Source: an uncultured bacterium
GTDB taxonomy: Bacteria > Planctomycetota > PLA2
NCBI GenBank assembly: GCA_965369495.1
Contig: CBDURV010000001.1
Location: forward strand, 1-29,317
Direction of reading: 5' to 3'
Length of the DNA stretch: 29,317 nt
Positions 3,195 to 24,159 of the stretch are shown here, in pieces. The position numbers and the translations under genes were made by a program. The notes under the pieces were generated by a model. That model had not been told where the DNA came from and made no database searches. It saw only the letters and a list, made by a program, of their open reading frames with translations. Each line of letters opens with the position of its first letter. Positions within the stretch are counted from its first letter, which is position 1.

Positions 3195-3232
3195 GGTACC
3201 CAATGCGCGAGCACGATAGCAGGTCGCGGATT

Positions 3233-3490: not shown

Positions 3491-6064
3491 GTGGGAAACC
3501 GTGCACTTGCCTTGCTCCTGATTCCGTTCCTGTTCGGCGCTTGCGATAAGAGCAGCGCGACAAAGCGGACGCCGCAGGCCGACTTCTCCGAGGACGCCGT
3601 CGCGGCGCGCGTCGAACTGCTGCGTGCCGATGTCGAAGCCGAGCTCGGCGACACGATCGGCTCCGTGGATGTGACAATTTCGACCCCGAAAGACATGGCG
3701 AAGCTGTTGCAGCCGGAGTTGGAGCGCACCTACTCTGAAATTGAGGGCGGCTTGCGCGGCGCAACCCTGAAGAAGCAGTGCGAACTCGAAGCGCAGGCAT
3801 ACTCGTCCGCCCTACTCGCCAAGGTCGCAATGACGGGAGCGGCGTTGCACGTCTGCCCCGAGAATTTCAAGCGCATCGCGGACATCACGCCGGAGTGGGC
3901 GGGGATCCAGTCGCCGGACGGGCTCGACATCATCTTGATCCATGAGCTGGTGCATGTCTGGCAGGAGCGCCGCTACAAGCTGGAGACGTTCATCGGAACG
4001 CCCAGGAGCCTGGATGCGTTGCTCGCGCGCAGCGCGGTGCTCGAGGGACATGCCCAGCTGGTGACGCGCGCGGTCGCGCAGCGGCGCGGGATCAGCGAGG
4101 CGTTCGAACTTCTGGAGAGGACCCAGACCGAGGTGCCGGATTCCACGACCGACCCGGCCGCGCGTCAGCAGATGCAGCTGACGCAAGCGGTGACGAGCTT
4201 CACCTATGCACAGGGGCTGCGTCTGTGGGACGAGGTGATTGCGGAACTGGGGCGCCCGGCTGCGGTTGAGCTGCTGTTCACGGAGCCCCCCAGCTCGACG
4301 CGGGCGGTGGAGCGCGAGGGGCAGTACCTTCACCCGACGCCGGAACCCGAGGTCGATCTGGATCGCGCGATCCGCCAGCTTCGTCGCTATCTCGGGGAGT
4401 TCGAAAAACAGCCGCCGCAGGTCGTACCGATGATGCACGGGGCGCTACGCGTCGCGCTCTCCGCCGGCGGACCCGTTGCGCAGCGCGCCATCGATGACGT
4501 CGTGCGCGGCGCCGGGGTTATTGGCGCGCGGCACATCGTCGGCGTCGTGTTGTGCCGAAGCCCGCGCGCCGCCCGCGCCCTGATGGAAGCGTCGCTGATC
4601 GACGCGCGCGCGCGGGTGAAGCTGTTCGCCGACGGCGCGACCACGTTGCGCATCGTGTCGGAAGAGGACGTGGCCGGCGTCGCGGGCAAGTTCCTGCAGC
4701 TCAGAGTCGAGTCGGGGGGCAACACGATCAAGCTCAAGCGGGGGCTGTTCGCGGACGGCTACATCTTCGTGGACGTCGTCGCGCCGGACGGGGATCGCGA
4801 GCGGATGGTGCGCATGCTTCCCCGCCTGGCCTCACTGTTGGCCAAACCGTCACCGTGGAGCGGGATGGAGCGAGCACAGGCGATCGCCGAGATGCAGACC
4901 AGCCTGTCGCACGCCGACGTGACGGTACGCTGGCGTGCAGTGCGCAACCTCGCCCGCCTGATCGAGGCGCGGCCGGACCTCGAGACGGCGCTCCTGGGTG
5001 CGGCCGCGGACGCCGATCCGGGTGTGCGCCTCGTGGTCATGCGCGCAATGGCCGCAGCGGGACACGACCTCGTTCGTTTCGCCAAGGACCACGACTGGGA
5101 GGTGCGCGAGGCGTACTGCCGGCTGCGCGCGGAAGACGACGATCCCAAGCCGAAGCGAATCGAGATGCTCAAGCCGTTCCTCACGGACGAGTCGCACCTG
5201 GTTCAGTTGGCGGCATGCGAGGCGCTTGAGGAACTCGATGCGGAAAAGGACATTTCTTTCGACGCGATTGAGACGCTCTTCGCCTCGCCGGACGGCCGCG
5301 TCCGCGAGGCTGCGCTCGGCCTGATCCACTACTCCGTAAAAGGCACGCGCATAGCGGACCTCATGCTGCGCGCACTCGATGACGAGGAGACCAACGTTCG
5401 CGCGCGCGCCGCCCGGCGCGTTGACAAATACGTCAGCGCAAGCGGTCGCGCCGTTCCGAAGCTGATAGGGCTCCTGGACGACAAGTCGGTGCGTGTACAG
5501 CTCGCCGCGTTGAACGGACTGGGGGATTACGGCGCCGGTGCCAAAGAGTCGGTTGGCCGGATCATCCCGATGCTGGACGACCCGAAGTTGCGCGACGCCG
5601 CCGCGGACGCGTTGGCGGAGATGGGTTCGGTAGCGGGAGCCGCCAAGCCGGCCCTGGTGCGTGGGCTGAACTCGGAAGATCGTCGCTTCGCGTTCAAGGC
5701 GGCGGAGGCACTCTGGAAGCTTCGCTATCCGCGGCTGAAGTTGCTGCCGGTTCTTGCGGACACACTCAAGAACGGCAGCAGGTGGGATCGCGGCGACGCG
5801 GCGACGCTGCTGGCCAAGATCGGTGAGCCTGCGCGCGGCTACATTCCGGAGATCATCGAGCTTCTGGATTCGGACCAGGAGTATGTGCGGCGTGACGCCA
5901 TACAGGCATTGGGCGAGTTCGGGCCGGCCGCCAAAGCGGCGTTGCCGAAGTTGCGCACGATGCTCAAGACGCTGCCCAACGGCGTCGATTCCGGTCTGGG
6001 CCTGGGCGGTGGCGAACTGCGGGCCACGACGGTCGAAACGGCGATCAAGAAGATCGAAGGCTAG
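3491..6064 (+). CDS. Putative lipoprotein: HEXXH zinc-metallopeptidase-like domain plus C-terminal HEAT repeats
   Basis: In-frame GTG at 3491 gives VGNRALALLLIPFLFGA-C (lipobox-like). IHELVHVWQ is followed by AVLEGHA (possible third Zn ligand). Many HEAT-like units (D....VR..A...L..). Start uncertain (ORF track 3431). Confidence 0.75.
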   Translation: MGNRALALLLIPFLFGACDKSSATKRTPQADFSEDAVAARVELLRADVEAELGDTIGSVDVTISTPKDMAKLLQPELERTYSEIEGGLRGATLKKQCELEAQAYSSALLAKVAMTGAALHVCPENFKRIADITPEWAGIQSPDGLDIILIHELVHVWQERRYKLETFIGTPRSLDALLARSAVLEGHAQLVTRAVAQRRGISEAFELLERTQTEVPDSTTDPAARQQMQLTQAVTSFTYAQGLRLWDEVIAELGRPAAVELLFTEPPSSTRAVEREGQYLHPTPEPEVDLDRAIRQLRRYLGEFEKQPPQVVPMMHGALRVALSAGGPVAQRAIDDVVRGAGVIGARHIVGVVLCRSPRAARALMEASLIDARARVKLFADGATTLRIVSEEDVAGVAGKFLQLRVESGGNTIKLKRGLFADGYIFVDVVAPDGDRERMVRMLPRLASLLAKPSPWSGMERAQAIAEMQTSLSHADVTVRWRAVRNLARLIEARPDLETALLGAAADADPGVRLVVMRAMAAAGHDLVRFAKDHDWEVREAYCRLRAEDDDPKPKRIEMLKPFLTDESHLVQLAACEALEELDAEKDISFDAIETLFASPDGRVREAALGLIHYSVKGTRIADLMLRALDDEETNVRARAARRVDKYVSASGRAVPKLIGLLDDKSVRVQLAALNGLGDYGAGAKESVGRIIPMLDDPKLRDAAADALAEMGSVAGAAKPALVRGLNSEDRRFAFKAAEALWKLRYPRLKLLPVLADTLKNGSRWDRGDAATLLAKIGEPARGYIPEIIELLDSDQEYVRRDAIQALGEFGPAAKAALPKLRTMLKTLPNGVDSGLGLGGGELRATTVETAIKKIEG

Positions 6065-6186: not shown

Positions 6187-9100
6187 ATGCGCATCCTGGG
6201 ACGTCTTGTGGCTCTCGGCCTCTTGGCCACGCTGTTGTGGAAAGCACGCGGTCCCGAGTACCGCGTAGTCCCGCTCGAGATTCCGTACACCGACGCGGAT
6301 GACCCGTTCACTCCCGACTCGCTTCGCGAACGGTTGGTCCGAATCGCGGGCGTACTCGGCAAAATTGTCGGCGATCCTGTGGAAGTCGCGGACATCCGGA
6401 TCGTTGTTGCCGACGACCGCGTGGAGGGAACGCGCGCAGCGCTTGAGCAGGACCCGAACTTCTTCGATCCCCGATCCGCCGACTATCACAGAATGGGCGC
6501 GAACATCGAGCTGGCCGTGCGCGCGGCGCGCTGGCTGGGGTATCTGGGACGCTACGACTCGACCACGCGGACGGTTCAGATATTCCCGGCTTGCTTTGAG
6601 GAGTTGAAGACCGCGGAGCTTAGCGCGGTGCTCGACGTCGTTATCGCACACGAGCTGGTCCACGTCTGGCAAGACCAGCAGTTCGGGCTGGCCGGAGACC
6701 ACACCACGAGCGATACGAGCGAAGCGCTCGTGGCGCGCGCCGCGATCGTCGAGGGGTCCGCGGAGTTCTTATCACGTCTCGTCGCACGTCGACTGGGAAT
6801 CGAACCCTCGTGGGAGACAATCGCAACGGGCAAGGAGGAACGGCGCGTCAACCCTGCGAATTCGCCGGGCACAGTCTCCGCCCAGCAAATTCACGAGTGG
6901 GCCTACGCGCGCGGACTCGCATTTGTTGAACGCGTTCACGAGGCCGGCGGGGGTAGGGACATCTGGCGGCGCCTCTTCGAAAATCCGCCACGTGACGTTT
7001 GGAGCATCGAGCAACCGGATCACTGGATCGCGCACCCGCGCGATGTGGCGCGCGACCTCGATTCGTGGGTCAAGCGCTTCCTGGCCAACCGCGCGCGTCC
7101 GATCCTGCACATTCCGATGTTGCGCCGCTGGGGGCATCGACCGATCGTGCGCGCCGATCTGCACAACCGGCTTGAGCACGCCGGCATCGCGCTCGATGAC
7201 GCCCCCTGGAGTGGATGTCGCGGCGGCGTATTGATCCACGGTCGGCCGTTCAGCGGACCGCTCGAACGCACCAACATCTTGTTGCGCGTATGGCGGCTCT
7301 CATCGGCGGAGCAGGCGACTCGGGCGCGCGCGCAACTGGTGGACGCCATGCGAGCGCATCAGTTTGACGGTGGTATCACGGGGCGCGCACGCATGCGGAA
7401 AGGTGAAGGGCTCGCGCTGTCCTGGACCCGTTTCGGCGCAGCGAGCACGGCGCCGACGGAGATCGTCTGGGCGGTTCGAGTCGAGCACGATCTTGTCATC
7501 GAAGGACTCACCACCGGGGCGGGTGTAGCGCCGGTCCTGCTCGCGCTCCTTGGCTCCGAATACGTTTCACGCCACGACAAGGTAGAAGACGAGCGTGCAT
7601 GGCTCCGCGAACCGCACGTTGCGAGTGAATGGCTGACCGCGCTTCGCCCCGAGAGCAAGACGGAACGAGGTCCGATGCTCGTCGCAGCACTGGACCACGA
7701 AGATTCCGACGTTCGTCGCTTCGCCCTCGGTCAGCTTGCCGTCGAAGGATGCGTGCCGCGCCCGTTCGCGGTCGAAGTTCCCGCGCTGGTGCAGTCGCGG
7801 ATGTTGTCAACCGATCCCGCGGAGCGTGCGGTGGCCATCGCCGCCGCGGACCGGTTGGAAGCCGAGATGGACCTGCCGTTCGGGACGCTCGACAAGCTCG
7901 CGACGAGTGATTCTGTCTTGGTGCGCGCCACTCTCGCAGGCTGCCGCAATCTGGATGCGCCGCGAGATGTGCTACAGCAGGATCGCGATCCCGAGGTTCG
8001 ACGCATCGCGTCGGCTCCAAAAGATACGCGGCGCGACTTGGGCGACCTCTTGATGGATCGGATCACCAAACGAGTCGATGCCACTTCAACCGAGGCTCCT
8101 GACGACGAGAGCGACACCGCCGTCCTGTTCGATGCTCTGCTCAGCAGTGTCTCGGACGGCGACAGTGCGCAACTGCACGCTCGCATTCTTCACCTTCTGC
8201 GATCGGACCAACCGACGCTGCGGCTGAATGGAGTGATGGCCGCGCGCCACTTGGACGAGATTCCCGGCGCCATCGCAGCCGAGCTCGTGCGCACATTCGG
8301 GTCCCCCATCCTGCGACGCGTCACCGTAGACGCATTGTCGGGCGAAAGCGTGAACCTCACACCGATTCGCAGCACACTCGTTGGGTATCTCGACCACCCG
8401 CGCTGGCGGGCCGCATCACTCCAAGCTCTTGCCGCAGCTGCGGATGGTCCCGCCCCGCCGGTGCTCACGCGCACGCAGGCCTGGATCAAAGATCACGATC
8501 CACAGGTGCGCTGCGCCGCTGCGGTTCTTCTCCTCCGACACGGCGACGCAGCTGTAGAGGACCTTCAACGCGTGGTGCTCGCCGCGTGGCCGCACGTCCC
8601 GCCGAACCTGCGGGCGGCTGCCATCAAGGTCTCGCCCAAGCTCGTGCGCGCGGCGCTGTCCTCCCCGATTCACGACGAGTGCAAGGCGGCCGCAAAGGCT
8701 GCAATCGAAGCTGGGCGCGGGGCCGAAATCCTCGAAGTACTGCCGACCATGGGACCGATGGTGGCCACGGAGCTCTGGGGCGCGTACCTGGACGGAGCGG
8801 ACGAATCGGAGGAGCGAATCCTCACACTGATTGAGTATCTCGACCGTTGGAGCACCGAAACACTGCCGGAGCTCGCCCTCGACGACATTTACGTGCCGTA
8901 CCTGGGCATCGATAACACTGCGCTGGCTCGCAAGCTGATTGCCGCGCTCGACCGCTGCATCGTCCTGGACTCCGCGCCCGCTACTCGAATGGTGCTAACC
9001 ATGGTCCGTCTGGAGCTCGAACCGGACGGCGAGTCGGAATCTGCCGCCGTTCGAGATGCCATCCACGATCTAATCTCGTTGCGAGGTGCGCCAGACTACG

Positions 9101-9417
9101 TGGATTGGACTGTCGAGCAAACCGTCGAGAAGTTCCTGCGGGAGCGCGACGGAATGAGCGAGTCGCAATTCTCGGCATACCTCATGCGGCGAGCCCGGCA
9201 GGCGTTCGAGGGCTACGGCGAGAATGGCGGCATCGAGCGGTACGTGCGCGAAGTCCCTGCCCGGCGTCGCGCTGCGCAGGCGCTCCTCCCCGAGCTCATC
9301 CGTATGAACACACGATCGAGCGTCGAACTGGCGTCACAGATCCTCGAGCTCTTCCCGGAATCCACAGTCAAGATTCCGGACACACTGCCGAGCTGGGAAC
9401 CGTGGCTCTACCGGTAA
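6187..9417 (+). CDS. Secreted/membrane-anchored HEXXH metallopeptidase-like protein with HEAT-like repeats (paralog of the upstream gene)
   Basis: Hydrophobic N-terminus MRILGRLVALGLLATLLW. AHELVHVWQDQQFGL and AIVEGSAE match HELVHVWQ...AVLEGHAQ of the upstream gene. Degenerate HEAT units (DHEDSDVRRFAL, DRDPEVRRIA, DHDPQVRCAAA). Confidence 0.75.
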   Translation: MRILGRLVALGLLATLLWKARGPEYRVVPLEIPYTDADDPFTPDSLRERLVRIAGVLGKIVGDPVEVADIRIVVADDRVEGTRAALEQDPNFFDPRSADYHRMGANIELAVRAARWLGYLGRYDSTTRTVQIFPACFEELKTAELSAVLDVVIAHELVHVWQDQQFGLAGDHTTSDTSEALVARAAIVEGSAEFLSRLVARRLGIEPSWETIATGKEERRVNPANSPGTVSAQQIHEWAYARGLAFVERVHEAGGGRDIWRRLFENPPRDVWSIEQPDHWIAHPRDVARDLDSWVKRFLANRARPILHIPMLRRWGHRPIVRADLHNRLEHAGIALDDAPWSGCRGGVLIHGRPFSGPLERTNILLRVWRLSSAEQATRARAQLVDAMRAHQFDGGITGRARMRKGEGLALSWTRFGAASTAPTEIVWAVRVEHDLVIEGLTTGAGVAPVLLALLGSEYVSRHDKVEDERAWLREPHVASEWLTALRPESKTERGPMLVAALDHEDSDVRRFALGQLAVEGCVPRPFAVEVPALVQSRMLSTDPAERAVAIAAADRLEAEMDLPFGTLDKLATSDSVLVRATLAGCRNLDAPRDVLQQDRDPEVRRIASAPKDTRRDLGDLLMDRITKRVDATSTEAPDDESDTAVLFDALLSSVSDGDSAQLHARILHLLRSDQPTLRLNGVMAARHLDEIPGAIAAELVRTFGSPILRRVTVDALSGESVNLTPIRSTLVGYLDHPRWRAASLQALAAAADGPAPPVLTRTQAWIKDHDPQVRCAAAVLLLRHGDAAVEDLQRVVLAAWPHVPPNLRAAAIKVSPKLVRAALSSPIHDECKAAAKAAIEAGRGAEILEVLPTMGPMVATELWGAYLDGADESEERILTLIEYLDRWSTETLPELALDDIYVPYLGIDNTALARKLIAALDRCIVLDSAPATRMVLTMVRLELEPDGESESAAVRDAIHDLISLRGAPDYVDWTVEQTVEKFLRERDGMSESQFSAYLMRRARQAFEGYGENGGIERYVREVPARRRAAQALLPELIRMNTRSSVELASQILELFPESTVKIPDTLPSWEPWLYR

Positions 9418-9452: not shown

Positions 9453-11414
9453 TCAACGGGGAGGTGCTGCTTGCGCGCGCGCAAGAGCCGCCTCCAGCGC
9501 CCGCCGCTCTTCCGCGCTCCACGCCGTCCCCAGCTTCGGATTCCAGTCCACGAGCGCCGCGCCGATTGCCGCACCGTCACGGGCGTGCTGGCGCGCAAGC
9601 GCCCGGACCGCTCGGTCGCGCGACTCGGCCCGCGTGTTGCGGTCCCGGAACAGCCGCAGACCCGCGGCGATCGCGGCGGTTAGTGCGAAGCCCTGCGCCG
9701 TGCACTGCTCGACGGCGTAGGACGCGACGCGGTCATCGGAGTCGGATAGCGCCTCGCGAAGCGCGCTCCGCGCGTCCGGCCGCATAACGAATCGCCGCAT
9801 GAGAAGTTCGCATGCAGCCAGGCGCACCAAGGGGGCGTCGTCTTTCGTCGATTCGAGCGCGACATCGCGCACTCCCTCATGGATTCCCGGCTGGCGGCCG
9901 AGCGCACGCAGGAGCGCGAGGTGGAATCGCTCGTCCGCACGCCGCATCAGTGCCAGCATTGCGACCTTCCGGGAGGCCGGACGCTGCTCAAGATCCATGA
10001 GGAAGTTAAGAGCGACGTACTGCTCCATCCGTGAGCCCGTCTCCACCCATCGCTCGAGGTGTCGAGCCGCCTCCACGGCGGGCGCGCCGCGTTGATGCAA
10101 GGCGCGCACACATGCCAATCGCACCGCTTCTTCGGGGTCCTCCAACCCCGCGAGCAATCCGTCGCGCCACGGCGACCCCGGTCGCGCGGCGTGGTAGCCG
10201 AGCGCGGAGGCTCCCGCCGCCCGCACGCGCGCGTCGGGATCCGTCAGCGCGGCGCCGAAGAGTTGCGCCAGTGACGCATCCGGAGGCGCCGCGCGCTGAT
10301 GGACACCAATCCCGGCCATTGCTGCCGCGCGAACCGCGGCTGGCTCGTCGTTCGCGAACGGCAGCAGATCCCGGATTGCGTCCGCAGGAACACTCGCGCG
10401 TGTCGCAGCCGCAGCCGCGCGCACCTGATCATCCTCGTCGCGATCGGCCAAGCGATCGAGAACGGCCCGCATCGGAACCGGGATCTCATCGCCTGCCAAG
10501 TACCGCAGTTCATGCAGTGCTCCGGCACGGACGCGCGCGTCATCGTCTGCCAAGAGGGGCAGAAGATCCGCAACCAGCCCATCACCCCGCGCGCGTCGGT
10601 ATTGGTCGCTCGCGTCCGGGTCGTCGGGCGGGGCGCCGGACCCGAACCAGCTATAGACGACCAGGAGCGCCCCGGCTTGAACGTCGGGATCCGGATCGCG
10701 TAGCAGCGTGCGTAGGTCGTGCCCCTCGACGTCGAGCGTACTGTTGAGCGCGTCCCAGATGATGCCCGCGGTAGACGACGGACCCCAAAGCTGCACACCG
10801 GGCGGAAGCCGCTGTGGAGTGTCTTCCTCGTCGGGATTCGCGACCGCGCGACAGAGCGCACGCCGAAGCGGCATGTCGGCCGAGAAATCGTGCGGCGCAT
10901 TGGCCGCGATGTGGTCCGCGGCGTCATTGCGCAGCCCTGCATCCCGATGGTGGATGCAACGCGCCAGGAATTCGCATTCGACCGCCCCCTCCGCGACCGC
11001 GATGACCAAGTTGAAAGCCGCCTCCCGCCGCTCTTGGTCCAGCTTCTCCAAAAGCGCGAGGGCGACTAGCGCATCCAGCGCGCACGGTCCCAACGCGCGA
11101 TAGAGCGCTTCTTCACCCCACTCAGCCTTCTCGACGGACTGAAGCAGGTCGTCTATCAGGCTGTCGGCCTGGCTGCCCGCCGCGACGATCTCCGCGACCA
11201 TCCGTCTCCGCCGCTCCTCGCCCGCAGCGGCCCACAAGGTGCGAAAGGCCTTCGCATCGCGCGCCAAGACTCGCTTCCCGTCCGTAGGCGAATCCGCGAC
11301 CGTGCGCGCGCCGCCGGACCGTCTGGAGCCCGACTCGCGCCCCGCGCCGATCCACCTGGCGGCGACGGCGGCGACGACGCCGATCAACACAACCCCAACG
11401 ACGCGGCGCGACAT
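9453..11414 (-). CDS. HEAT-repeat protein with N-terminal membrane anchor/signal
   Basis: ATG at 11414 gives MSRRVVGVVLIGVVAAVAARWIG. Repeated units such as DPDPDVQAGAL, DDDARVRAGAL, DPDARVRAAGA, DPEEAVRLAC, DSDDRVASYA. Confidence 0.8.
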   Translation of the reverse strand: MSRRVVGVVLIGVVAAVAARWIGAGRESGSRRSGGARTVADSPTDGKRVLARDAKAFRTLWAAAGEERRRRMVAEIVAAGSQADSLIDDLLQSVEKAEWGEEALYRALGPCALDALVALALLEKLDQERREAAFNLVIAVAEGAVECEFLARCIHHRDAGLRNDAADHIAANAPHDFSADMPLRRALCRAVANPDEEDTPQRLPPGVQLWGPSSTAGIIWDALNSTLDVEGHDLRTLLRDPDPDVQAGALLVVYSWFGSGAPPDDPDASDQYRRARGDGLVADLLPLLADDDARVRAGALHELRYLAGDEIPVPMRAVLDRLADRDEDDQVRAAAAATRASVPADAIRDLLPFANDEPAAVRAAAMAGIGVHQRAAPPDASLAQLFGAALTDPDARVRAAGASALGYHAARPGSPWRDGLLAGLEDPEEAVRLACVRALHQRGAPAVEAARHLERWVETGSRMEQYVALNFLMDLEQRPASRKVAMLALMRRADERFHLALLRALGRQPGIHEGVRDVALESTKDDAPLVRLAACELLMRRFVMRPDARSALREALSDSDDRVASYAVEQCTAQGFALTAAIAAGLRLFRDRNTRAESRDRAVRALARQHARDGAAIGAALVDWNPKLGTAWSAEERRALEAALARAQAAPPR

Positions 11415-11441
11415 GGTTTTCGAGAATACCCGACGAACCGC

Positions 11442-11468
11442 GATTGGCCGGGAGCGCACTGGCCAATC
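11442..11468. promoter_or_regulatory. Perfect 8-bp inverted repeat in a divergent intergenic region (possible operator)
   Basis: GATTGGCC-11 nt-GGCCAATC between the divergent starts at 11414 (-) and 11570 (+). Confidence 0.3.
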
Positions 11469-11569
11469 CCTCCGGGGTGAACGCACCACCATCCGCTACC
11501 GCTTGGTGACGGCGGCGCTTGAAAACTCAGCGGATTTGCCGCGGCACGGGATTCGCCTTCGGGAGATGT

Positions 11570-12430
11570 ATGCGCTCTCTCACGCTTGCTCTCCTCGCAT
11601 TGTTGACCGTGCCTGGTGTGGTGTTTGCCCACGGGGGAGGATTCCGCGGGCCAAACGGCGGGGTGCCGCCGGGGTTGCGACCGCGGGGGTTGTTTTGCTT
11701 CTGTGCGCTGGTGAAGTGCAGCCATTGCGCGAACGACGCATTGCGCACGGGGAAGAACTACGTGCGCGGGGACGTGCGTACGACCGTGCTGCGTCATTGG
11801 GGGGACATCGAGCTCGTGCGGGTGACGCTGACGTTCCGGACGGAACAGGACGTGGGCGCCGTCGAGGGCTTCGCAAGGCTGCGTCTCGCGCCGGTGTTTG
11901 CCGCGGTCGGCGGCCAGGTGCAAGCGCATGGGACGGCGTCGCCGTTGATCGCCCGCCTGCGCGATTCCGAACCCGCGCGGCGCACCTATCTCTGGATCCG
12001 GCAGACAAAGTTGATCGATCCGCTGCTGGTCATGCGTCGGGAGCCCGGCGTCGTGGATGTGCGCGCGTTTCCCGTGACTAGCGAGGCGCCCTTGCGGGTC
12101 GCCATCGAGGGCTATCGGCTGATCCCTCGCAAGGGCGTGCCCGGCATGCGCATCTACCGCACTGGGGAGCGCTACCTGACGGTCGCGGCCGATGGGAAGC
12201 ACGAGTTCCTCTCCCGCGACGATTGCCGCCGACGCCACGGCACCGCAGCGGCGATCATCGTGCCCTGCGTGCCCGCGCTTGAAACCGCGGCGACCGACCG
12301 CGGCAATGCGGCGGCCGGCGCCAAACGCGTGCTCGCGGCCTATCCGAACGGCTCGAAGCCCGGTCCCATGGCCGCCGCAGACGCGTCGCCGCCCCCTCCG
12401 CCGCCGCCCAGCACCACTCCGCAGCCCTAA
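11570..12430 (+). CDS. Secreted protein with a VIT (vault protein inter-alpha-trypsin)-like domain
   Basis: GGGAG then ATG at 11570. Signal peptide MRSLTLALLALLTVPGVVFA, then HGGGFRGPNGGVPPG and a Cys cluster. VIT-like pattern V.LTF...EG..RL...ARRTY..I.....DPLL......V.AFPV......V.IEGY. Pro-rich tail. Confidence 0.6.
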   Translation: MRSLTLALLALLTVPGVVFAHGGGFRGPNGGVPPGLRPRGLFCFCALVKCSHCANDALRTGKNYVRGDVRTTVLRHWGDIELVRVTLTFRTEQDVGAVEGFARLRLAPVFAAVGGQVQAHGTASPLIARLRDSEPARRTYLWIRQTKLIDPLLVMRREPGVVDVRAFPVTSEAPLRVAIEGYRLIPRKGVPGMRIYRTGERYLTVAADGKHEFLSRDDCRRRHGTAAAIIVPCVPALETAATDRGNAAAGAKRVLAAYPNGSKPGPMAAADASPPPPPPPSTTPQP

Positions 12431-12469: not shown

Positions 12470-12571
12470 CACGAGACCGTCACTGCCCGCGACGACCGGG
12501 TAAGCATCGACCGGTGTCCTCTTCCGAGGGCGCTTACTTGGAAAAATTGTGCCTGGCGCCGTACTTCCAGG
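12470..12571 (+). repeat. Partial element R2: linker type alpha plus module B, without module A
   Basis: cacgagaccgtcactgcccgcgacgaccgggtaagcatcgaccggtgtcctcttccgagggcgcttacttggaaaaattgtgcctggcgccgtacttccagg aligns over ~100 nt with 3318-3416. Confidence 0.9.
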
Positions 12572-12578
12572 TTTTTTT
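12551..12578 (+). terminator. Possible weak intrinsic terminator at the end of module B
   Basis: CCTGG-10 nt-CCAGG followed by T7 (12572-12578), downstream of the VIT-like gene. The stem is short. Confidence 0.35.
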
Positions 12579-12680
12579 GCCCGTCCCCTGTGGATGTCCG
12601 CGCGCCAATCGCAGTGCTGTATGTACGGCCCCGTCGTGGATGGGGTAATGGTCGGATACTGCCATCGGGAGTTCTTCTTC

Positions 12681-13313
12681 ATGCCCAAGTTCGGAACGCT
12701 GGCAACAGCGCTGTTGATCCTTGCCGGATCCGCGTTCGCGGATCCCTTTTCCGGTCGGTACGAGCTGGTTGCAGCCCCCGACTTCAACGTACCCGCCGCT
12801 CGGCTCGTCGGGGTCATTGAGGTCACGAACGCGCCGATGGGCACGACTTCGTTCAGTCTGCACGACGCGTTTGTTTCGGACTTCGAGTTCAAGCTCGACG
12901 GCTACCCGCTCAACTCCCAGTTCATCTATGACACGGGCTCGGACTTCGTATGGGACTTCTCGATGCAGTTCGGCAGCGCTCTCGGCACGGCTGAACTTCA
13001 CGCTAGCGCGACGGGTGGGCGATGGGTGGCTTCGGATCCCGCAGAGCTCGCCAAACCGGGCCTGCGCCACTATCTCCCGATTCAGCTCACGCCGGGACAT
13101 TGGAGGTTCTTCGACTCCGTCGATGACGCGACCACGAGTGGCAATGTCCTGAGTTTTGGCTCTGCGGGGTTGATCGGACAGGCGTGGCACCTCGAGTTGG
13201 CGAGCACGCCGGCACCCGCTCCGGACCCGGTGCCTGAGCCCGGAACTCTCGTTCTGTCCGGTCTCGCCGTCGCGGGCGCGCTAGTCTGGCGCCGCCGCAA
13301 GCGCGCGGCGTAG
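12681..13313 (+). CDS. PEP-CTERM sorting-domain protein
   Basis: GGGAG then ATG at 12681. Signal peptide MPKFGTLATALLILAGSAFA; C-terminus PVPEPGTLVLSGLAVAGALVWRRRKRAA. Confidence 0.9.
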   Translation: MPKFGTLATALLILAGSAFADPFSGRYELVAAPDFNVPAARLVGVIEVTNAPMGTTSFSLHDAFVSDFEFKLDGYPLNSQFIYDTGSDFVWDFSMQFGSALGTAELHASATGGRWVASDPAELAKPGLRHYLPIQLTPGHWRFFDSVDDATTSGNVLSFGSAGLIGQAWHLELASTPAPAPDPVPEPGTLVLSGLAVAGALVWRRRKRAA

Positions 13314-13322: not shown

Positions 13323-13500
13323 CGGTACCGGGTGTTTTCCTGCGAAACTCGCGAGTCAATTTGGCAGACGAGTCTCGGAGAATTACTCCCGGTACCGAAT
13401 CTCGGGTCGATCCGGACCGGGATTAGATGCACGGCATCGACCGGTGTCCTCTTCCGAGGGCGCTTACTCGGAAAAATTGTGTCTGACGCCGTATTCCCGT
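13323..13500 (+). repeat. Full bipartite element R3: module A (13323-13397) + linker type beta + module B (13434-~13497)
   Basis: Module A differs from R1 at 3 of 75 positions. Linker aatctcgggtcgatccggaccgggattagatgcacg. Begins 9 nt after the PEP-CTERM stop. Confidence 0.95.
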
Positions 13501-13565: not shown

Positions 13566-14723
13566 TCAGTCGCGAGGTGGGATCTCGCGGAGCGTCCACG
13601 GTCCGGCTCGGTTGTCGCGGTTCGCCAGCTCCGGCACCGCGATGTACGGCAACTCCAGCGTGGCGGCCACGTGGGACAACCGGCTTCCGAGTGACGGATC
13701 CACGACCCCCACGCACCCGTTCCACAGCGGACTGTTCGGCTGGGGCAGGTCGCCCCTCTTGGTCTCGCTGACCAGGAAGAACGGCTCCGACGGCTGTTCG
13801 GATCCCGGCGCGAACAGCACGCCGCTCGCCGGTGAATCGAACACTGCCACGCCGCTCGCGAAGCGTTGGCCGTCCTCTTCGCGAACGAGCTCACCGGACT
13901 TGCGGTAGGTGCCGAAGGAGTGCTGCACCGGTCGAAGTTGATGGCAGTAGAGGCGGTCGGTGGCCACCCACTCGACATCGATGTCGAAGCCGGCCACGTC
14001 ACGGATGCGCCAGCCCTGTTCAACCACTCTGCGGACCGTGTCGAGGTGGCGCTGGGCGTGCAACTGCCCGGAGCCCGAGGATGCTTGAAGGTTGATCTCA
14101 CCCCAGTAGGGAGCCTTCCTTTCGCCGACTTTCGCGATCGGGTTGTCGCGCTCGACGTCGAGGCACCACGAAACGTGGCCGCCGACCGTGCCGTTCCACC
14201 ACTTGTGCGCGAGCATCAGGTCTTCCGCGTCGCAGAATTCTATTACCAGCTCGTTGCCGGATGTGGCGAGATTGCCCGTCAGGGTCTGGGGCGAGAGTTG
14301 TTCGAGGTGGAAGGTCGGTACCTGAAGCACCAGCGCGACGCTGTCGTTTCCCTCGAACGGCGGTTGTGCCTCGAGGAACGCGGCGTACACGCGGCGCGCG
14401 ACCTCGACAGCTTCTTTCGCTGACGTGACCATGTGCGAGTACGTCTGGCCGCAGGACGGGCGGCGCGTGAAGAGGGAGCCGCGCACGAGTACGCGCGTGT
14501 GACCATGCGTCAGCGCCGCGTACTCCGCCGCCACGGTCTTGGCGAGATCTTCGGGAAGCGCCTGGCAACCGTTCTGAGTCAGTGCGTCCCGGTGTTGTTC
14601 GAACGCGGCGGTCGGGACCACACGGTAGGGAGCGACGTTTGCGCCGGGGATGCCGGACAGGACGAACAGGCCCGCGCCCTTGTCGCCCTGCTCGTGGGCG
14701 CGATCGCCGAAATCCGCGCGCAT
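13566..14723 (-). CDS. Minimal PEP-synthase/PPDK-like enzyme (ATP-grasp PEP/pyruvate-binding-type domain plus phospho-His swivel domain)
   Basis: GDKGAGL, VLVRGS, SCGQ, ALVLQ and DIDVEWV...LYCHQLRPV parallel PEP synthase GGKGASL, AVRSS, SFAGQ, VQ and DIEWA...LFIVQARP. GSRLSHVAATLELPYIAV parallels [21 protein letters not shown] with the His kept. Only 385 aa. Confidence 0.75.
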   Translation of the reverse strand: MRADFGDRAHEQGDKGAGLFVLSGIPGANVAPYRVVPTAAFEQHRDALTQNGCQALPEDLAKTVAAEYAALTHGHTRVLVRGSLFTRRPSCGQTYSHMVTSAKEAVEVARRVYAAFLEAQPPFEGNDSVALVLQVPTFHLEQLSPQTLTGNLATSGNELVIEFCDAEDLMLAHKWWNGTVGGHVSWCLDVERDNPIAKVGERKAPYWGEINLQASSGSGQLHAQRHLDTVRRVVEQGWRIRDVAGFDIDVEWVATDRLYCHQLRPVQHSFGTYRKSGELVREEDGQRFASGVAVFDSPASGVLFAPGSEQPSEPFFLVSETKRGDLPQPNSPLWNGCVGVVDPSLGSRLSHVAATLELPYIAVPELANRDNRAGPWTLREIPPRD

Positions 14724-14733
14724 GGCCGTTCGA

Positions 14734-16119
14734 TCACGTCTTGTGTTGCTGCAAGAAGTTCGAGAGCTTCTCGTACACGTCCTCCGAGGAGTCGTACTCG
14801 ATCATCTCCATGCCTTTCAGGTCCGTGGGAACCGCCTCGCTCCGTTTCCTGAGCAGGACCGTCGTCTTCCCGCGCCCGTACACGAGCCCCAGCTCCATCA
14901 TCACGCTCGGACTCCAATGGGTGATGTCGACTACAGCGCAGTCCGCTTCCTGCATCATCTGGCACACCTTGCACATGATGTCGACGTTGGAGACCTCTTC
15001 GTCCGCACGCTGAGGCTTGTAACCGCAAGCATCACCCGCGCGTTTGATGCCGTACTTGTAGATGTCGTTCATTTCCGGCTTGTACGACATAGCAACGAAC
15101 ATGTTTCTTGAGCTGTACGCGATCTCCTTCGGACACGGTTGCCCCCCGCCGAGCTTCCAGCAGGTCATCGTCGACACTTCTGTCACTTCGAGGAACCGGC
15201 GGACCTCCGGGTGCTTGTCAAGCCCCGTGAGAACCGCGACGCATTCGCCGCTTTCGACCGCGGGGGTCTTAACGACGAGCGTGTCGGTCGCCAGCGCCGC
15301 CTCGGAGTCATCCGCGTCCACGCTCTTGAGGACGCCCGTCATGCGCGCGTACGGCCAGTACCGGTCGAACAGCGGGGTGTGCCGTGTTTCGATGTCCTGC
15401 GGCTCCCGTGAATCCGAATCGAGACGACAGGAGCCGAGAGTGCAGATACCCGGGCTGAGTCGCTCGCGCTCTTCCGGCGTGCAGGCGACAAGGCCTTGGA
15501 GATACGCGTTGATCGTGCTTCGCGCGCGCTCGCGATACTCCGCTTGGTTTCCCGGATACGCGGGGTTGCGGAGTTGGGGTTCGCTCAGGAGGACGGCGCT
15601 GTCGAACACCCTCTTCTCCAGGGCCTGCTCGAGTTCGCGGAAGTAGACCGCGGAGTTCTTCGTGATGACGTCCACGAAGTTCGAGTTGTACGTGGGTACG
15701 ATCGCGAGCAAGGTCAAATAGGGTGCCGTGGCCCCGCGAAAGGCGTTGCGAACGTCGCGCGCCATCTCGAACGTGAGCCCGTTGCTGATTCCGCCCCGTG
15801 GCGAAGAACTGAGCGCGACCACCGCGGGGACGGCGCCATCCTCCTCCATGCTGCGCCGGAGCCGGTCCAGCTCGTCCAGAATCCGGCTCTTCGAATCGTC
15901 GTAGATCCGGCGCGCGTGCGAAATGTCGCGATCCGCGCTTACCTCCGCGCGAAGGACGACCCGGCAAGCGACATCCGGAAGTTCGGCCTCGTGGAGCGCG
16001 GGATCGCTGTCCACGCACATCACGTACCCGGAAGACTGAACGAGATCCGGACCGACAATGGAGGTCAGCAGGGTTCCACGTCCCCCGATTCCAATCATGC
16101 AAATCGCGTCTCTGCTCAT
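14734..16119 (-). CDS. Tubulin/FtsZ(CetZ)-like GTPase-fold domain fused to a C-terminal nucleoside 2-deoxyribosyltransferase/TIR-like domain
   Basis: GAGGAG then ATG at 16119. IGIGGRG (T1), VDSD, SSSPRGGISNGLTFEMA (degenerate GGGTGSG loop), LTLLAIVP and FDSAVLLSE occur in FtsZ order. The C-terminus FVAMSY...RADE...IMCKV...EADCAVVDIT..SPSVMMELG....K..VLL...VPTDL.G...IEY matches NDT-like domains (NPNV.YELG). Confidence 0.7.
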   Translation of the reverse strand: MSRDAICMIGIGGRGTLLTSIVGPDLVQSSGYVMCVDSDPALHEAELPDVACRVVLRAEVSADRDISHARRIYDDSKSRILDELDRLRRSMEEDGAVPAVVALSSSPRGGISNGLTFEMARDVRNAFRGATAPYLTLLAIVPTYNSNFVDVITKNSAVYFRELEQALEKRVFDSAVLLSEPQLRNPAYPGNQAEYRERARSTINAYLQGLVACTPEERERLSPGICTLGSCRLDSDSREPQDIETRHTPLFDRYWPYARMTGVLKSVDADDSEAALATDTLVVKTPAVESGECVAVLTGLDKHPEVRRFLEVTEVSTMTCWKLGGGQPCPKEIAYSSRNMFVAMSYKPEMNDIYKYGIKRAGDACGYKPQRADEEVSNVDIMCKVCQMMQEADCAVVDITHWSPSVMMELGLVYGRGKTTVLLRKRSEAVPTDLKGMEMIEYDSSEDVYEKLSNFLQQHKT

Positions 16120-16168: not shown

Positions 16169-17104
16169 GTGAACCCGGGCGCCGCACCGCAACCGACCCT
16201 CGTTTTCCCGTCCACCAACCCCGATCTCGACGGGGTTGCGTGTGCGTGGGCCTATGCCGAGTTGCTGCGCAGCTCGGGCGAGGACGCGCTGGCGTGGGTG
16301 GCCGGCGAGCCCGACGGGGAGGCGCGCTGGGTGCTGCAGGAACGCGACGTGGAGATCTCGCGCGACCCGGAGGCGATCGGTACGGCGGGTCGGTTCGTCT
16401 ACGTCGACGGGAGCGAGTTGCCCGGGCTGCCGGAAGGCATCGATCCCATTGCAGTCGTCGAGGTCATCGACCACCGTCGCCAGCATCGCGCGGCGACGGA
16501 CTTTCCGAACGCACGCCTTCAGATCGAAGCCGTGGGCGCAGCCGCGACCCTGGTGCTCGAGCGCTTCCGGGAGACGTGGGCCGACCCATCCCCCGAATCG
16601 GCGATCCTTCTCTACGCGGCGATTCAATCGAACACGCAACGCCTCAATGGATCGGTCACCACGGAGCGCGATCGGCGGGCCGCCGCCTACCTCGAGACCG
16701 TCTGCGAACCGCCGCGCGACCTGATTGCCCGCCAGATGGCGGCGCGCCGGTCCGAGATCCTCGCGGACCTGCGCGCTGCCGTGAAGGCGCAGAGCAAGAC
16801 GTTCACGGCTGCCACGGGCGCGTTCGTCGTCGCGCAACTCGAGCTGCCGGGTGTTGAGGTGCTGCTACGCGAGCGCGACTTCAAGGAGACTCTCGCGGCC
16901 AGCCTGGATGGCCCCCGCGCCATGGTCAACATTGTCGACTCCGCGCTCGGCAGGTCGTTCCTGTTGGTACCGAATGCGGAGTTCCGGGACGAAGTCGCCG
17001 CGGGAGTGGGGCGCGAGTTCAACGGGCAGATCGCGACGATGCAGTCCGCGATGCTTCGAAAACAGATCGTGCACGCTCTCGGCGCCCGGGCCGGCACCGA
17101 GTGA
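16169..17104 (+). CDS. DHH-family phosphoesterase, family II (Mn-dependent) inorganic pyrophosphatase-like, with variant metal ligands
   Basis: NPDLDGVACAWAYAELL, VYVD, EVIDHRR, IEAVGAAATLV, LLYAAIQSNT and TTERD align with PpaC NPDTDTICSAIAYADL, ILVD, EVIDHHR, EPVGCTATIL, LMLSAIISDS and TCTDQD. Confidence 0.8.
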   Translation: MNPGAAPQPTLVFPSTNPDLDGVACAWAYAELLRSSGEDALAWVAGEPDGEARWVLQERDVEISRDPEAIGTAGRFVYVDGSELPGLPEGIDPIAVVEVIDHRRQHRAATDFPNARLQIEAVGAAATLVLERFRETWADPSPESAILLYAAIQSNTQRLNGSVTTERDRRAAAYLETVCEPPRDLIARQMAARRSEILADLRAAVKAQSKTFTAATGAFVVAQLELPGVEVLLRERDFKETLAASLDGPRAMVNIVDSALGRSFLLVPNAEFRDEVAAGVGREFNGQIATMQSAMLRKQIVHALGARAGTE

Positions 17105-17410: not shown

Positions 17411-18438
17411 CTACGCCTTGCCGAGGCAGCGCTCCATGCTGAATACTTCGCCGCGCGACAGCACGATGTAGATGCCGACCAGCAGGCGCCGCGCGAGAGT
17501 CGTCCGCACGTTGTTGGCATGCATCCGGCGCCGGTAGGGCTCGGCCCACTTGCGCACCAGCGGATGCGTGCTCATCAGCCGCACCGCGGTCTGGTTGAGG
17601 ATCCAGCGCAGCTCCTTGTTGCCCTTCTTGGTGATCCGGCCGTGGTGGCTCGTATCTGCCGAGTTGGCGACCCGTGGCACAAGCCCACTGTAGGACGCCG
17701 CCGCGCGCGCGTTGCGAAAGCGGCTCACGTCACCGAGCTCGGCCACCAGCGTCAACGCGGTCTGCGCGCCGACCTGCGGGATCATCGCCTGCAGCGCGGC
17801 AACCTTGCTCGCTTTGGCGCGTTCGACGATCCGCTTGTGCAGTCGTCGGATCGACTCCTCCATCTGCTCCAGCGCAAACACCAGCGCGTCCATGCAGCAG
17901 TCGAGATCCAGCACCGCTAGGCAGATCGCCCGCAGGCGCGCTAGCTGGCGGGGTGCGTAGAGCAGCCCTCTGGGCGGGGCGACCTTGAACGCGTCCAGCA
18001 GCGCGCGGATGCGATTGCTCAGGTGCGTGCGCTGCCCGACGAGGTCGTGCCGGATCCGCTCGAGCTGACGCAGTGCATACACCTCGTCGGACGGATAGTG
18101 GTCTTCGCAAAGCGATCGAGATCACCGAGACGCAGGCGCCGCGCGATCTCGTGCGCGTCGCGACGATCGTTCTTCTTGCCGCAGGACCGCAGATTGAGCC
18201 GCGCCGCATCGACGACAACGATGTCGTAGCCGCGTTCTTGGCAGGCGTTGACAAACCAGCGGTTCAAGCCGACCGCCTCCACGGCGAATCGAGCGGGGCT
18301 CCACTGGCTCAGATGGGCGACGAGGGCGAGCCCCAGATCGAGCGTCTCGACCCGATGGCGCTCCTCCGCGTCGAGCACACGAATCTGAATCACACTCTTG
18401 TGCAAATCGACTACAACGAAATACTGGGTATGGGGCAT
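17411..18438 (-). pseudogene. IS110-family transposase with a one-base deletion near 18100
   Basis: N-part: VDLHK, AVEAVG, KKNDRRDA (DEDD RuvC-like). C-part: IPQVGAQTA..LVAELGD..RF.NAR...SYSGLVP....SAD....GRITKKGN..LR. The frames join at AAG ACC AC TAT CCG TCC GAC GAG; adding one base gives a ~342-aa protein. AAGGA RBS upstream of the ATG at 18438. Confidence 0.9.
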
Positions 18439-18509: not shown

Positions 18510-18681
18510 CCGGGTGTTTTCCTGCGAAACTCGCGAGTCAATTTGGCAGACGAGTTTCGGAGAATTACTCCCGGTACCGAATCTCGGGTCGATCCGGACC
18601 GGGATTGGATGCACGGCATCGACCGGCGTCCTCTTCCGAGGGCGCTTACTCGGAAAAACTGTGTCTGACGCCGTACTTCCT
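18510..18681 (+). repeat. Remainder of full element R4: module A (to 18579) + linker type beta + module B (18616-~18681)
   Basis: ccgggtgttttcctgcgaaactcgcgagtcaatttggcagacgagtttcggagaattactcccggtaccgaatctcgggtcgatccggaccgggattggatgcacggcatcgaccggcgtcctcttccgagggcgcttactcggaaaaactgtgtctgacgccgtacttcc, nearly identical to R3. Confidence 0.95.
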
Positions 18682-21585: not shown

Positions 21586-24159
21586 TCAGCGACTGGCGCT
21601 CGCGGCGGCGGCGGCGACCATCGGCTGCCTGCTCTTGGCCGCCTTCTCGATCACCTTGCGCAGCTTATCGATTTCGGTCTTCCCATGGTCGACGTAGATA
21701 GGTGCGAGCAGCGCCATGAGACCGGCGCCGACGGTGTAAACCTTGCCGCCGTACGGGCCCCACGCTCCGATAGGCTCCCAGCCGGGCGTCTTGACCGACG
21801 TAAGCATCGTGTTGAGTTGGAGCAGCCACCTTTGGGCCATTTTGCTGGGCTCAGCCTGGCAAAGCAGGCGCGCGCCGAACGCCCAGTAGAGATAGTCGAC
21901 CTCGTCGCGTTTCTCGGTGTCCCAGCCGGGCTCCCGATCCTGTACGACCGCGCGCCCGAGCTTGTACGTCGAGCCGACCTTCGTAACTTCCGGCTCGACC
22001 AGGGCGCGGCACCAACAGGCGATGGCGGTCGTGGAATACACGCTTCGGTCGCGACCTATGATCGTGCGTCCGCGGATTTCGATCGTGTCCGTGCCAAGTT
22101 GTTTCTTGAACATGGGGAACGCCGGGCTGCCGCCAGCGACGTTGTAGCCGACCTGCCCGAATTCGGGATCGGTCATCTTGGTGAACCAGTCGATGCCGCC
22201 CTGGAGAGCGATCGCCGAGCGTATTCCTGTCGCGTGCTCCGCGGCGACGAGCGCGTAGATACACCAGCCGGTGCAGAAGGTGTCATTGTCGCCCGGTCGC
22301 GCCCGGTAGCGCCACGCGAGGGACGGGTTGCGCGCCTTCCGCAGGTACTTGATGGCGTGTTCAAGCGTGCGGTTCATCGACTTGCCGCCGCTCAAGATCG
22401 CGTGTTCGGCCAGCGCGGCGGTCGAGATGGCGTGCAACAGCACGTGGTGCGTGTGCTTGCGTTCACCGATGAGGCCGTCCTTCTGCTGCCAGCGCTGCAG
22501 GTAGCGGCAGGCGGCCAAGACTGTCGAGCCGTGCCGGGGATGCTGCTCGGTCACACCTGCCGCCGCGTATCCGAGCAGCGCCATCGCCGTCACGCCGAGA
22601 TCGCAATCGGGGTTGCCGCCGTACTTGTCGCAGTCCCACGCCGCCCAGTCCTCGGTGCGCTCCACAGACCGTGTGAGCCAGTCGAGAGCGCCCTCCGCTT
22701 TCTTGCGGGTCTTGGTGTCGAGTTTCGCGAATCGAGCCGTGCGCAACTCCGGCACGCCGGGCACCGCCTCGCGCACGATGCGGGCGATTGCGCGCACCGC
22801 CACGCTGGCGACGCGCGGATCCTTGTCGCGCGCGACATCGGTGAGCAGTTCGAGCAGGTCGGGGTGGAGCGGCCGCACAAGCCCGGCGAGTTCGATGACG
22901 CCGGGAGTGCGCGCTTGGCTCGCGGCCGCAGCGAACACGTCAATGTGCGGTCGCGGTTTGCCGACCTGGAAGAGCCGATACCAGCAGTACGCGCGGACGG
23001 CGGGGTTTTCGTCCTTTAGACCTCGCCGAAGGTCCGCCTCCTGCGCATCGGACCAGCGAAAGCGCGTCACGACAACCCGATACACTGCGGCGCGCACGCC
23101 CTCGTCGGCATCCTTGGTCGCGGCGGGCACGCCCCCGAGGACATCCTTCGGAACCTTCGAGTATGTGGAGGCGAGCAGCCCGAAGAACGCGCGCCGCACG
23201 GCAGGATCCTTGTGCGTCGCAAGCGAACCGAGTTTGTCGAACGGGAGGCCCTGCTGCTTGGTGTTGGCCCAGTCCACGCGCGCGAGCGCTTCGAGCAGCG
23301 GCGCGTTGCCCTTGGCCGCTTCGGTGGCGATGGTGCCGTGCAATTTGGGGGCGAGGAAAGAAATGGCATCGATCGTGGTCGGGAGTCGCGCCAATAACTC
23401 GGGCCAAATCTCATCGCTCACGGGTGTCACCGACTCGGCCGCGGCCGCGCGCACCACCGGCGCCGGATCCTCCAGCGCCTTGAGCAGGACGCGAACGACC
23501 ATCTGCTTGTCTGGCAGAACCTGCGCCGCCGCCCGCACAGCGTTTCCACGCACGCTGGCTTCAGGATCGGCGCAAGCCGCCTGGATCCTCGCGGAATAGC
23601 GTCCCGCCTTCGGCCCGAATGCGACCAGCGCACCATATCCCGCGGCGCGACGCGTCTTGCTCTTGGAGTCGAGGTACTTCTCCAGCGCGGCAAAGCTGGG
23701 CGGCCCCACTTTCGCAAGGGCTGCCGCCGCAGCGGCGCGGGTGTCCGCGTGTCGTGAGATCAGCAGGCGGCAGAGTGCGGAAACGTGTTTTGATCGCGCG
23801 TAGAGGAGTGCGGGCGCGAGCGTGCGGCGAACGGTGGGATCGTCGTCGCCGGCTACGCGAATGATGCTCGTTCCATGCTTCGTGAAGGTGGCCGCATCCT
23901 TGCTCCACTCGGCCAGTAACGCGGCCGCGGAGCGGCGTCCGGGAACCGAAATCTTCTTCCACGCCTTGAGCACGTCCTTGGTCGCCCGCGGGCCGTACGA
24001 GCGCAACACATCGCTGGCCTCTTGCGCCCTGTCCGCACGGCGCGAGCCGAGCGCGATGGCCCACTTGCCCGTATCCACTTGCCCGTGCGCCACCCCCGCG
24101 AGCAACATCAGAGTCACGCAGATCGAACCGCAGATCGAACCACTTTCCATCGGGGGCAT
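21586..24159 (-). CDS. Secreted HEAT-repeat protein with a C-terminal prenyltransferase/squalene-cyclase-repeat (alpha-alpha toroid) domain
   Basis: Signal-like VTLMLLAGVAHG-Q; HEAT units (DDDPTVRR, DPEASVRGNAV, DADEGVRAAV). GVTAMALLGY..AG, YLQRWQQKDG, HAISTAAL, AWRYRARPGDND..CTGW..AL, FGQVGY. Exact start uncertain (24159, 24150 or a later codon). Confidence 0.75.
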   Translation of the reverse strand: MPPMESGSICGSICVTLMLLAGVAHGQVDTGKWAIALGSRRADRAQEASDVLRSYGPRATKDVLKAWKKISVPGRRSAAALLAEWSKDAATFTKHGTSIIRVAGDDDPTVRRTLAPALLYARSKHVSALCRLLISRHADTRAAAAAALAKVGPPSFAALEKYLDSKSKTRRAAGYGALVAFGPKAGRYSARIQAACADPEASVRGNAVRAAAQVLPDKQMVVRVLLKALEDPAPVVRAAAAESVTPVSDEIWPELLARLPTTIDAISFLAPKLHGTIATEAAKGNAPLLEALARVDWANTKQQGLPFDKLGSLATHKDPAVRRAFFGLLASTYSKVPKDVLGGVPAATKDADEGVRAAVYRVVVTRFRWSDAQEADLRRGLKDENPAVRAYCWYRLFQVGKPRPHIDVFAAAASQARTPGVIELAGLVRPLHPDLLELLTDVARDKDPRVASVAVRAIARIVREAVPGVPELRTARFAKLDTKTRKKAEGALDWLTRSVERTEDWAAWDCDKYGGNPDCDLGVTAMALLGYAAAGVTEQHPRHGSTVLAACRYLQRWQQKDGLIGERKHTHHVLLHAISTAALAEHAILSGGKSMNRTLEHAIKYLRKARNPSLAWRYRARPGDNDTFCTGWCIYALVAAEHATGIRSAIALQGGIDWFTKMTDPEFGQVGYNVAGGSPAFPMFKKQLGTDTIEIRGRTIIGRDRSVYSTTAIACWCRALVEPEVTKVGSTYKLGRAVVQDREPGWDTEKRDEVDYLYWAFGARLLCQAEPSKMAQRWLLQLNTMLTSVKTPGWEPIGAWGPYGGKVYTVGAGLMALLAPIYVDHGKTEIDKLRKVIEKAAKSRQPMVAAAAASASR

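Follow-up and report, generated by a model that had tools for sequence, protein, structure and literature searches.

The window analysed here is the whole 29,317-nt stretch (positions 1 to 29,317, forward strand) of contig CBDURV010000001.1 from an uncultured bacterium of the Planctomycetota (GTDB lineage PLA2; GenBank assembly GCA_965369495.1). At 13566-14723 on the minus strand it carries a gene, P0001, for a minimal dikinase of 385 amino acids (aa), stop codon included. The reading frame begins with an ATG at 14723 and stops at 13566-13568, as evident from the list of open reading frames (ORFs) and their translations, and the plus-strand reading of the same interval was rejected because of its many stops. 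The GC content at third codon positions (GC3) of 0.80, with GC1>GC2, follows the same pattern as that of other genes of the window (GC ~66%), and four homologous clusters with 38-45% identity to P0001 match its N-terminus and its length. P0001 joins an ATP-grasp domain to a diverged phosphohistidine swivel domain, and its ATG lies 10 nt from the stop codon of the gene P0013, which encodes a tubulin/FtsZ-fold protein. This spacer (14724-14733), read directly from the sequence, indicates an operon-like coupling of the two genes.

Residues 1-268 of P0001 (13920-14723, minus strand) are an ATP-grasp of the PPDK_N type, as indicated by VIA-align, Foldseek, hhalign and hmmsearch. Its divergence is evident from the family databases, as no match was obtained in Pfam, NCBIfam or PADLOC even at E 10. 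The gathering scores of PF01326 and PF00391 were not reached in the Pfam scan, and within the family only P0004 gives a sub-threshold PF01326 match (23.8 bits, cut-off 27). A search of the PDB with the single sequence returned a chance match only. The profile built from the alignment of five family members (A1) weakly matches the phosphoenolpyruvate (PEP) synthase chains 8a8e and 2ols and the pyruvate phosphate dikinase (PPDK) chain 1vbg, and it does so at the expected places, namely the PPDK_N start GGKGANL, the VRSS strand and the end DIEW...LQxRP. When A1 was compared by hhalign with P0006, a canonical PPDK_N+PEP-utilizers protein having strong PF01326 and PF00391 matches, 328 collinear columns spanning both domains were aligned, His on His, with a probability of 95.8% and an E value of 7.7e-9.

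The AlphaFold2 (AF2) model of P0001 has a mean predicted local distance difference test (pLDDT) score of 59, being good at residues 1-170 and 220-265 and poor past 285. Foldseek related this model to rifampin phosphotransferase (RPH) at an E value of 3e-10. Structural alignment of residues 3-268 by VIA-align gave Z scores of 15.8 for RPH, 14.3 for its isolated ATP domain, 13.4 for HpeI and 11.4 for maize PPDK, to which generic ATP-grasp enzymes, with Z of about 10, are clearly inferior. Lys15 (GDKGAGL), Arg81 (VRGS), Glu251 (DVEW) and Gln262/Arg264 (HQLRP) align on the canonical catalytic residues and are identical in every family member covering those positions; P0005, being without the N-terminal part, is uninformative for Lys15 and Arg81. 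The ATP-grasp of the family also displays an invariant KWWNG block at the place where canonical enzymes carry GLGE.

Downstream of the ATP-grasp, the linker and C-terminal domain occupy residues 272-385 (13569-13910, minus strand), as supported by hhalign, the collinear alignment and look-alikes in the ESM Atlas. Profile comparison identifies these ~114 residues as a strongly diverged phosphohistidine swivel domain. The best-conserved block of the five-member alignment is VDPxxGSRLSH, and the corresponding stretch of P0001 (GSRLSHVAATLELPYIAV, residues 346-363) includes the predicted phospho-acceptor, His351. The GSRLSH motif (13671-13688, minus strand) is invariant in all five family members, and in the full-length alignment with P0006 it coincides with GGTTSH, the GGxTSH signature of canonical mobile domains. 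When the C-terminal part alone (residues 272-385) was compared by local hhalign with an alignment of 31 canonical swivel domains, taken from PPDK and PtsI genes of relatives, the score was 22.1 with His on His; none of 200 column-shuffled controls reached this value (mean 11.6, standard deviation 2.3, maximum 19.8). Furthermore, 27 of the 30 nearest look-alike clusters of P0001 in the ESM Atlas are PPDK_N+PEP-utilizers proteins (PF01326+PF00391).

P0001 has no third, acceptor-binding domain, neither the PEP/pyruvate barrel nor the rifampin-binding domain. The protein ends 34 residues past His351, and a convergent PEP-CTERM gene (12549-13313; PF07589 above its cut-off) terminates some 250 nt away from the stop codon, most of the gap being occupied by a 171-nt repeat. 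Homologs measure 401, 413, 413 and 407 aa, to which a 310-aa fragment cut at its N-terminus is added; 64 columns are invariant across these 38-45% identical proteins, and every catalytic position as well as the His motif is among them. Truncation by a frameshift was considered and rejected, since there is no room downstream of P0001 and the homologs stop at the same place. A profile search of 1.84 billion representatives of any size recovered four family clusters at E<1e-10 and six further weak matches, all of them PPDK_N proteins of 304-459 aa; neither this search nor a word search for longer forms returned a longer or fused relative. The preliminary description, made from the letters of the window alone, had proposed a stand-alone 385-aa PEP-synthase-like enzyme in which ATP-grasp motifs run directly into a His swivel domain and the substrate domain is lacking, and it had called for a check on the lengths of homologs. 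The frame is real and lies on the minus strand, both domains are recovered in the order proposed, the missing domain is borne out, and the full-length homologs (401-413 aa) are not consistently longer.

The family is very rare. Besides P0001 it comprises four clusters in a set of ~15 billion proteins, and no ortholog of P0001 was recovered from 40 relatives or from 400 genomes sampled across the phylum, the latter giving weak matches to long canonical enzymes only. GTDB genome contigs and JGI metagenomes were scanned for sequence patterns of both alignments, which returned no ortholog and only locus L039, described below with the partner; plasmid and phage searches gave no match to the family. 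Judged by its sequences, the P0001 family is a separate and extremely diverged one.

The partner gene P0013 (14734-16119, minus strand) encodes 461 aa, in which Foldseek, VIA-align and profiles distinguish a tubulin/FtsZ-fold domain and an NDT/MilB/Cap12-TIR-like domain. The first of these (residues 3-315; 15175-16119, minus strand; Foldseek and VIA-align) is related to TubZ, CetZ and FtsZ at a Foldseek E value of about 1e-9, in a model built from a three-sequence alignment with a pLDDT of 65. It matches both domains of CetZ, tubulins, BtubA, TubZ and FtsZ with VIA Z scores of 17-23, the next fold class reaching a Z of about 12 only, and this similarity is invisible to the sequence profiles searched. 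GIGGRG and SSPRGGISN are invariant across the three orthologs; by our own reading of the tubulin signature, they would represent a T1-like and a degenerate T4-like motif, respectively.

The second domain of P0013 (residues 336-461; 14737-15114, minus strand; VIA-align and profiles) contains the Glu of a 'MELG' motif and aligns with 2'-deoxyribosyltransferases and MilB at a VIA Z of 11.0 and a root mean square deviation of about 3 Å. PF05014 scores 24.8 bits in P0013, below its cut-off, and PF10137 (the Cap12/PycTIR TIR domain) is above cut-off in the partner orthologs P0014 and P0015. The domain also matches TIR effector models of PADLOC (E 1.9e-7), and Cap12 chains align with it around the catalytic-Glu motif. 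The same module is found N-terminal to HEAT repeats in P0016, a JGI metagenome protein, and also in locus L039 (152-901, plus strand), where it stands C-terminal to an unrelated region of ~110 aa in a 249-aa protein of a low-GC organism, with no dikinase in that arrangement. Because of these two further architectures the module is considered a mobile one of the effector type. A Cys-containing lead-in, CWK/CFK-x-G-x-x-C, precedes it in P0016 and L039 too.

The partner orthologs P0015 and P0014 (452 aa each, 38-41% identical to P0013) come from single Logan contigs of 2860 and 2936 nt, respectively. Exactly these sizes recur for the single contigs that encode the dikinases P0004 (407 aa; 2860 nt) and P0017 (413 aa, differing from P0003 by one residue; 2936 nt), each size being just big enough for a dikinase and a partner gene. 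From the identical contig sizes the P0001-P0013 pair appears, by a strong argument, to be conserved in two further metagenome lineages, at ~40% protein identity. Between these two sister lineages the dikinase is 60% and the partner 78% identical.

Comparison with characterised systems places P0001 in a family whose canonical members have three sites, RPH being a three-domain enzyme with a large rifampin-binding domain between the ATP-grasp and the His domain (PMC4844700). RPH (RPH-Lm; PDB 5hv1, 5fbs) is the best structural match of the ATP-grasp of P0001 (over 237 residues), the order of the two domains is identical with the His swivel domain C-terminal, and the same conversion of ATP to AMP, Pi and phospho-His would be expected. 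P0001 differs from it in carrying only a linker of ~15-20 residues between the domains and in a sequence identity of about 17%. PPDK and PEP synthase (PF01326+PF00391+PF02896) likewise share homologous ATP-grasp and His domains, and their catalytic Lys, Arg, Glu, Gln, Arg and His all have counterparts in P0001; unlike them, P0001 has no PEP/pyruvate TIM barrel, its ATP-grasp is about 70 residues shorter, and it stays under all Pfam thresholds. The source genome also encodes a canonical PPDK (909-aa frame) and PtsI.

An architectural parallel is VadK (Rv1127c of Mycobacterium tuberculosis, described in 2026), a two-domain PPDK derivative which autophosphorylates its swivel His and binds enzymes of the methylcitrate cycle (PMC13400623). 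Short PPDK_N+PEP-utilizers clusters of 355-419 aa are also present in Actinomycetota (ESM Atlas), and because these and VadK exist, an acceptor-less ATP-grasp+His protein is of a known kind. They differ from P0001 in being recognised by Pfam, P0001 being far more diverged and set apart from VadK on the basis of its description; the partners of VadK are methylcitrate-cycle enzymes, whereas that of P0001 is a tubulin-fold/NDT-TIR fusion. Another apparently acceptor-less two-domain form, not closely related to the P0001 family, is P0006 itself (Logan, 457 aa); its chain stops directly behind the mobile domain, and its contig of 3640 nt is big enough for the protein to be complete. The preliminary description had also named the neighbour a tubulin-NDT protein, which the two folds confirm, and it had treated the two-domain architecture as singular, which it is to a lesser degree in view of VadK and the short PPDK_N+PEP-utilizers families. 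The novelty lies in a separate, extremely diverged dikinase family together with an unprecedented tubulin-NDT/TIR partner; literature searches on combinations of tubulin with TIR or of PPDK_N with defence returned nothing relevant.

Dikinases split over several polypeptides are also on record, as in HpeHI (PMC12167813). HpeHI and phenylphosphate synthase resemble the present pair in having the ATP site and the acceptor site on different proteins, and HpeI is the third-best structural match of P0001. They differ in that their ATP-grasp stands alone and the His domain goes with the acceptor domain, whereas P0001 fuses ATP-grasp and His domain. Transfer of phosphate in trans from a phospho-His to a protein, or to a nucleotide held by a protein, has precedents in Enzyme I and HPr of the phosphotransferase system and in DhaM and DhaL-ADP. 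Both Enzyme I and DhaM are charged by PEP rather than by an ATP-grasp, and neither has a tubulin or NDT partner.

The surroundings of the pair contain a third gene of possible relevance. At 16169-17104 on the plus strand, divergently transcribed and with its start about 50 nt from that of P0013, lies a gene for a DHH/DHHA2 protein of 311 aa, resembling family II pyrophosphatases in family scans and alignment. Its alignment with the Mn-dependent inorganic pyrophosphatases of family II extends over the whole protein, but at 102 bits it stays far under the NCBIfam cut-off of 283. In our reading of the alignment it appears altered at putative metal ligands (GH to ST, DHH to DHR and SD to SN). The gene was not found in 12 relatives, and it is possibly a third member of the system formed by the pair.

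Directly downstream of P0001 lies a copy of the 171-nt repeat (13328-13498, strand not assigned; repeat family D1), of which a 96% identical direct copy is present at 18510-18680 and a further copy at 3243-3413. The first two bracket the dikinase, tubulin-NDT and DHH genes along with an IS110 remnant, and shorter related repeat modules are present at 12493, 21504 and 24435. The remnant (17411-18082, minus strand) is a 223-aa fragment of an IS110/IS1111-family transposase, with the C-terminal Transposase_20 domain intact and the N-terminal DEDD domain reduced to its last ~30 residues. GC content is 0.62 for the tubulin-NDT gene, intermediate (0.664) for P0001 and 0.69 for the flanking core-like genes. 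The bracketing repeats, the low GC of the partner and the failure to find the pair and the DHH gene in relatives hint that the region is an accessory cassette. In the synteny comparison a genome of the same genus was strongly diverged, with 36% identity for a flanking gene. Further out, four genes surround the locus (228-3320, minus; 3431-6064, plus; 9453-11492, minus; 21586-24159, minus), one of them for a fusion of a Ser/Thr kinase with an FGE-sulfatase domain and the others for large HEAT-repeat proteins, and family scans gave no match for the 1076-aa ORF at 6187-9417 or the 303-aa ORF at 11519-12430.

We tentatively interpret P0001 as the phosphodonor half of a split dikinase, the phosphate passing in trans either to the tubulin-NDT/TIR partner or to a nucleotide bound by it, a reading which we hold at somewhat less than even confidence. 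By homology with PPDK, PEP synthase and RPH, the ATP-grasp would bind Mg-ATP and His351 of the swivel domain would attack the β-phosphate, upon which AMP would leave, the γ-phosphate would go to water or Pi, and phospho-His351 would remain. Since P0001 has no acceptor domain of its own, it is proposed that the charged His domain docks on the co-transcribed tubulin-fold/NDT-TIR-like protein, which would offer the acceptor site in trans. The acceptor may be a nucleotide in one of the two nucleotide pockets of the partner, for example a nucleoside diphosphate converted to the triphosphate in the tubulin-type pocket, or it may be a side chain of the partner. A phospho-His phosphorylates a nucleotide in NDK and in the DhaM-DhaL system as well, which is a precedent for such a step. 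Phosphotransfer of this kind would couple the assembly state and the N-glycosidase activity of the partner to the supply of ATP.

The retained catalytic residues, the conserved His motif, the lack of an acceptor domain or of room for one, the 10-nt spacing and the apparently conserved pairing are all counted in favour of this interpretation. To these are added the two nucleotide-binding modules of the partner, of tubulin/FtsZ fold and of NDT/MilB/TIR-like fold, and the precedents of the split enzyme HpeHI and of VadK autophosphorylation on the equivalent His. The preliminary description had held that the phospho-His must pass its phosphate on in trans, perhaps to this neighbour or to a small molecule bound by it; on these grounds trans-phosphotransfer from P0001 to the partner is plausible but not compulsory, and that interpretation is supported in part. 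Several observations weigh against it. VadK has been proposed to act via phospho-dependent binding of partner enzymes, and phosphotransfer has not been demonstrated for it (PMC13400623). The pairing elsewhere rests on the identical contig sizes, in about two informative independent lineages, and the Asp two residues ahead of Glu251 is replaced by Cys in P0003 and P0004. PF00391 misses the swivel domain of P0001, and a search of its own genome returned the canonical PPDK and PtsI only. AF2 models the His domain with low confidence (pLDDT <50), because of which the swivel fold is drawn from sequence profiles only. The PADLOC scan of the large ORFs of the window revealed no other defence genes around the pair. 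Finally, the support is computational throughout: autophosphorylation and docking of P0001 are inferred, as is the nature of its acceptor.

The VadK precedent leads to the alternative that P0001 is a regulatory autokinase, in which autophosphorylation of His351 would sense ATP or the energy state and phospho-dependent binding, the phosphate not being passed on, would control the tubulin-NDT/TIR protein or another target, in effect as an antitoxin-like restraint on a nucleotide glycosidase. The shared two-domain architecture, the autophosphorylation of VadK on the equivalent His and the tight operon arrangement speak for it, P0001 being suggested to act on another protein only by its operon. 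The faster evolution of the dikinase than of its partner is likewise what regulators and antitoxins often display. P0001 is, however, no close relative of VadK, as judged by the absence of any Pfam match, and shuttling between two sites accounts more readily for the retention of the mobile swivel domain, so that such an autokinase seems rather unlikely. The effector-type domain of the partner can also be placed at the centre. The two proteins, and perhaps the variant DHH phosphoesterase with them, may form a new kind of conflict or signalling module in which the ATP-charged phospho-His carrier would load or regenerate the nucleotide of a polymerising tubulin-fold switch and assembly of the switch would activate the fused NDT/TIR-type N-glycosidase effector; this reading is considered doubtful.

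Missing acceptor sites can also be accounted for without any transfer in trans if P0001 consumes ATP with water as the last acceptor, yielding AMP and two Pi, while the NDT/MilB-like domain of the partner cleaves the nucleoside monophosphate and the adenylate pool is destroyed by an abortive-infection-type effector pair. The resemblance of the C-terminal domain of the partner to MilB, a nucleoside-monophosphate N-glycosidase, and its sequence matches to the TIR domains of Cap12/PycTIR effectors agree with such a role. Plain hydrolysis needs no swivel His domain, yet nothing in the family is better conserved than the His motif; the context of a defence island is lacking as well, and the role of the tubulin domain would be left unexplained, which makes the explanation improbable. 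Nor does it seem likely that P0001 is a self-contained kinase of a small molecule, with a metabolite phosphorylated in its interdomain cleft or in a homo-oligomer and the neighbour unrelated or linked only metabolically. Relatives of the dikinases do phosphorylate molecules as diverse as rifampin, phenol and hydroxyphenylethanones, and family-specific invariant blocks, KWWNG among them, could form the lining of a new pocket. The characterised dikinases of this kind nevertheless carry a separate acceptor domain or subunit, and the conserved pairing with the tubulin-NDT protein would be a coincidence. It is highly improbable that P0001 is a decayed remnant or pseudo-enzyme of no catalytic role, as its extreme divergence, lack of Pfam matches and very narrow distribution might suggest, because P0001 has an unbroken frame and a conserved length, and the 64 invariant columns take in the His motif along with the catalytic positions.

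The PPDK/PEP synthase/RPH dikinases are the textbook case of swivel enzymes with three sites, and a two-domain derivative, VadK, was not characterised before 2026. P0001 represents an independent reuse of the ATP-grasp and phospho-His unit, beyond the reach of Pfam, as a fixed companion of a tubulin-fold/nucleotide-glycosidase fusion. The general importance of its family is limited by its extreme rarity. If the phosphate does go to the partner or to its nucleotide, the pair would represent a new phosphorelay logic and would open a way into a tubulin-effector protein that is otherwise opaque. If the reading as a conflict or signalling module is true, dikinase chemistry and a cytoskeletal fold would for the first time be linked with nucleotide-degrading immunity.

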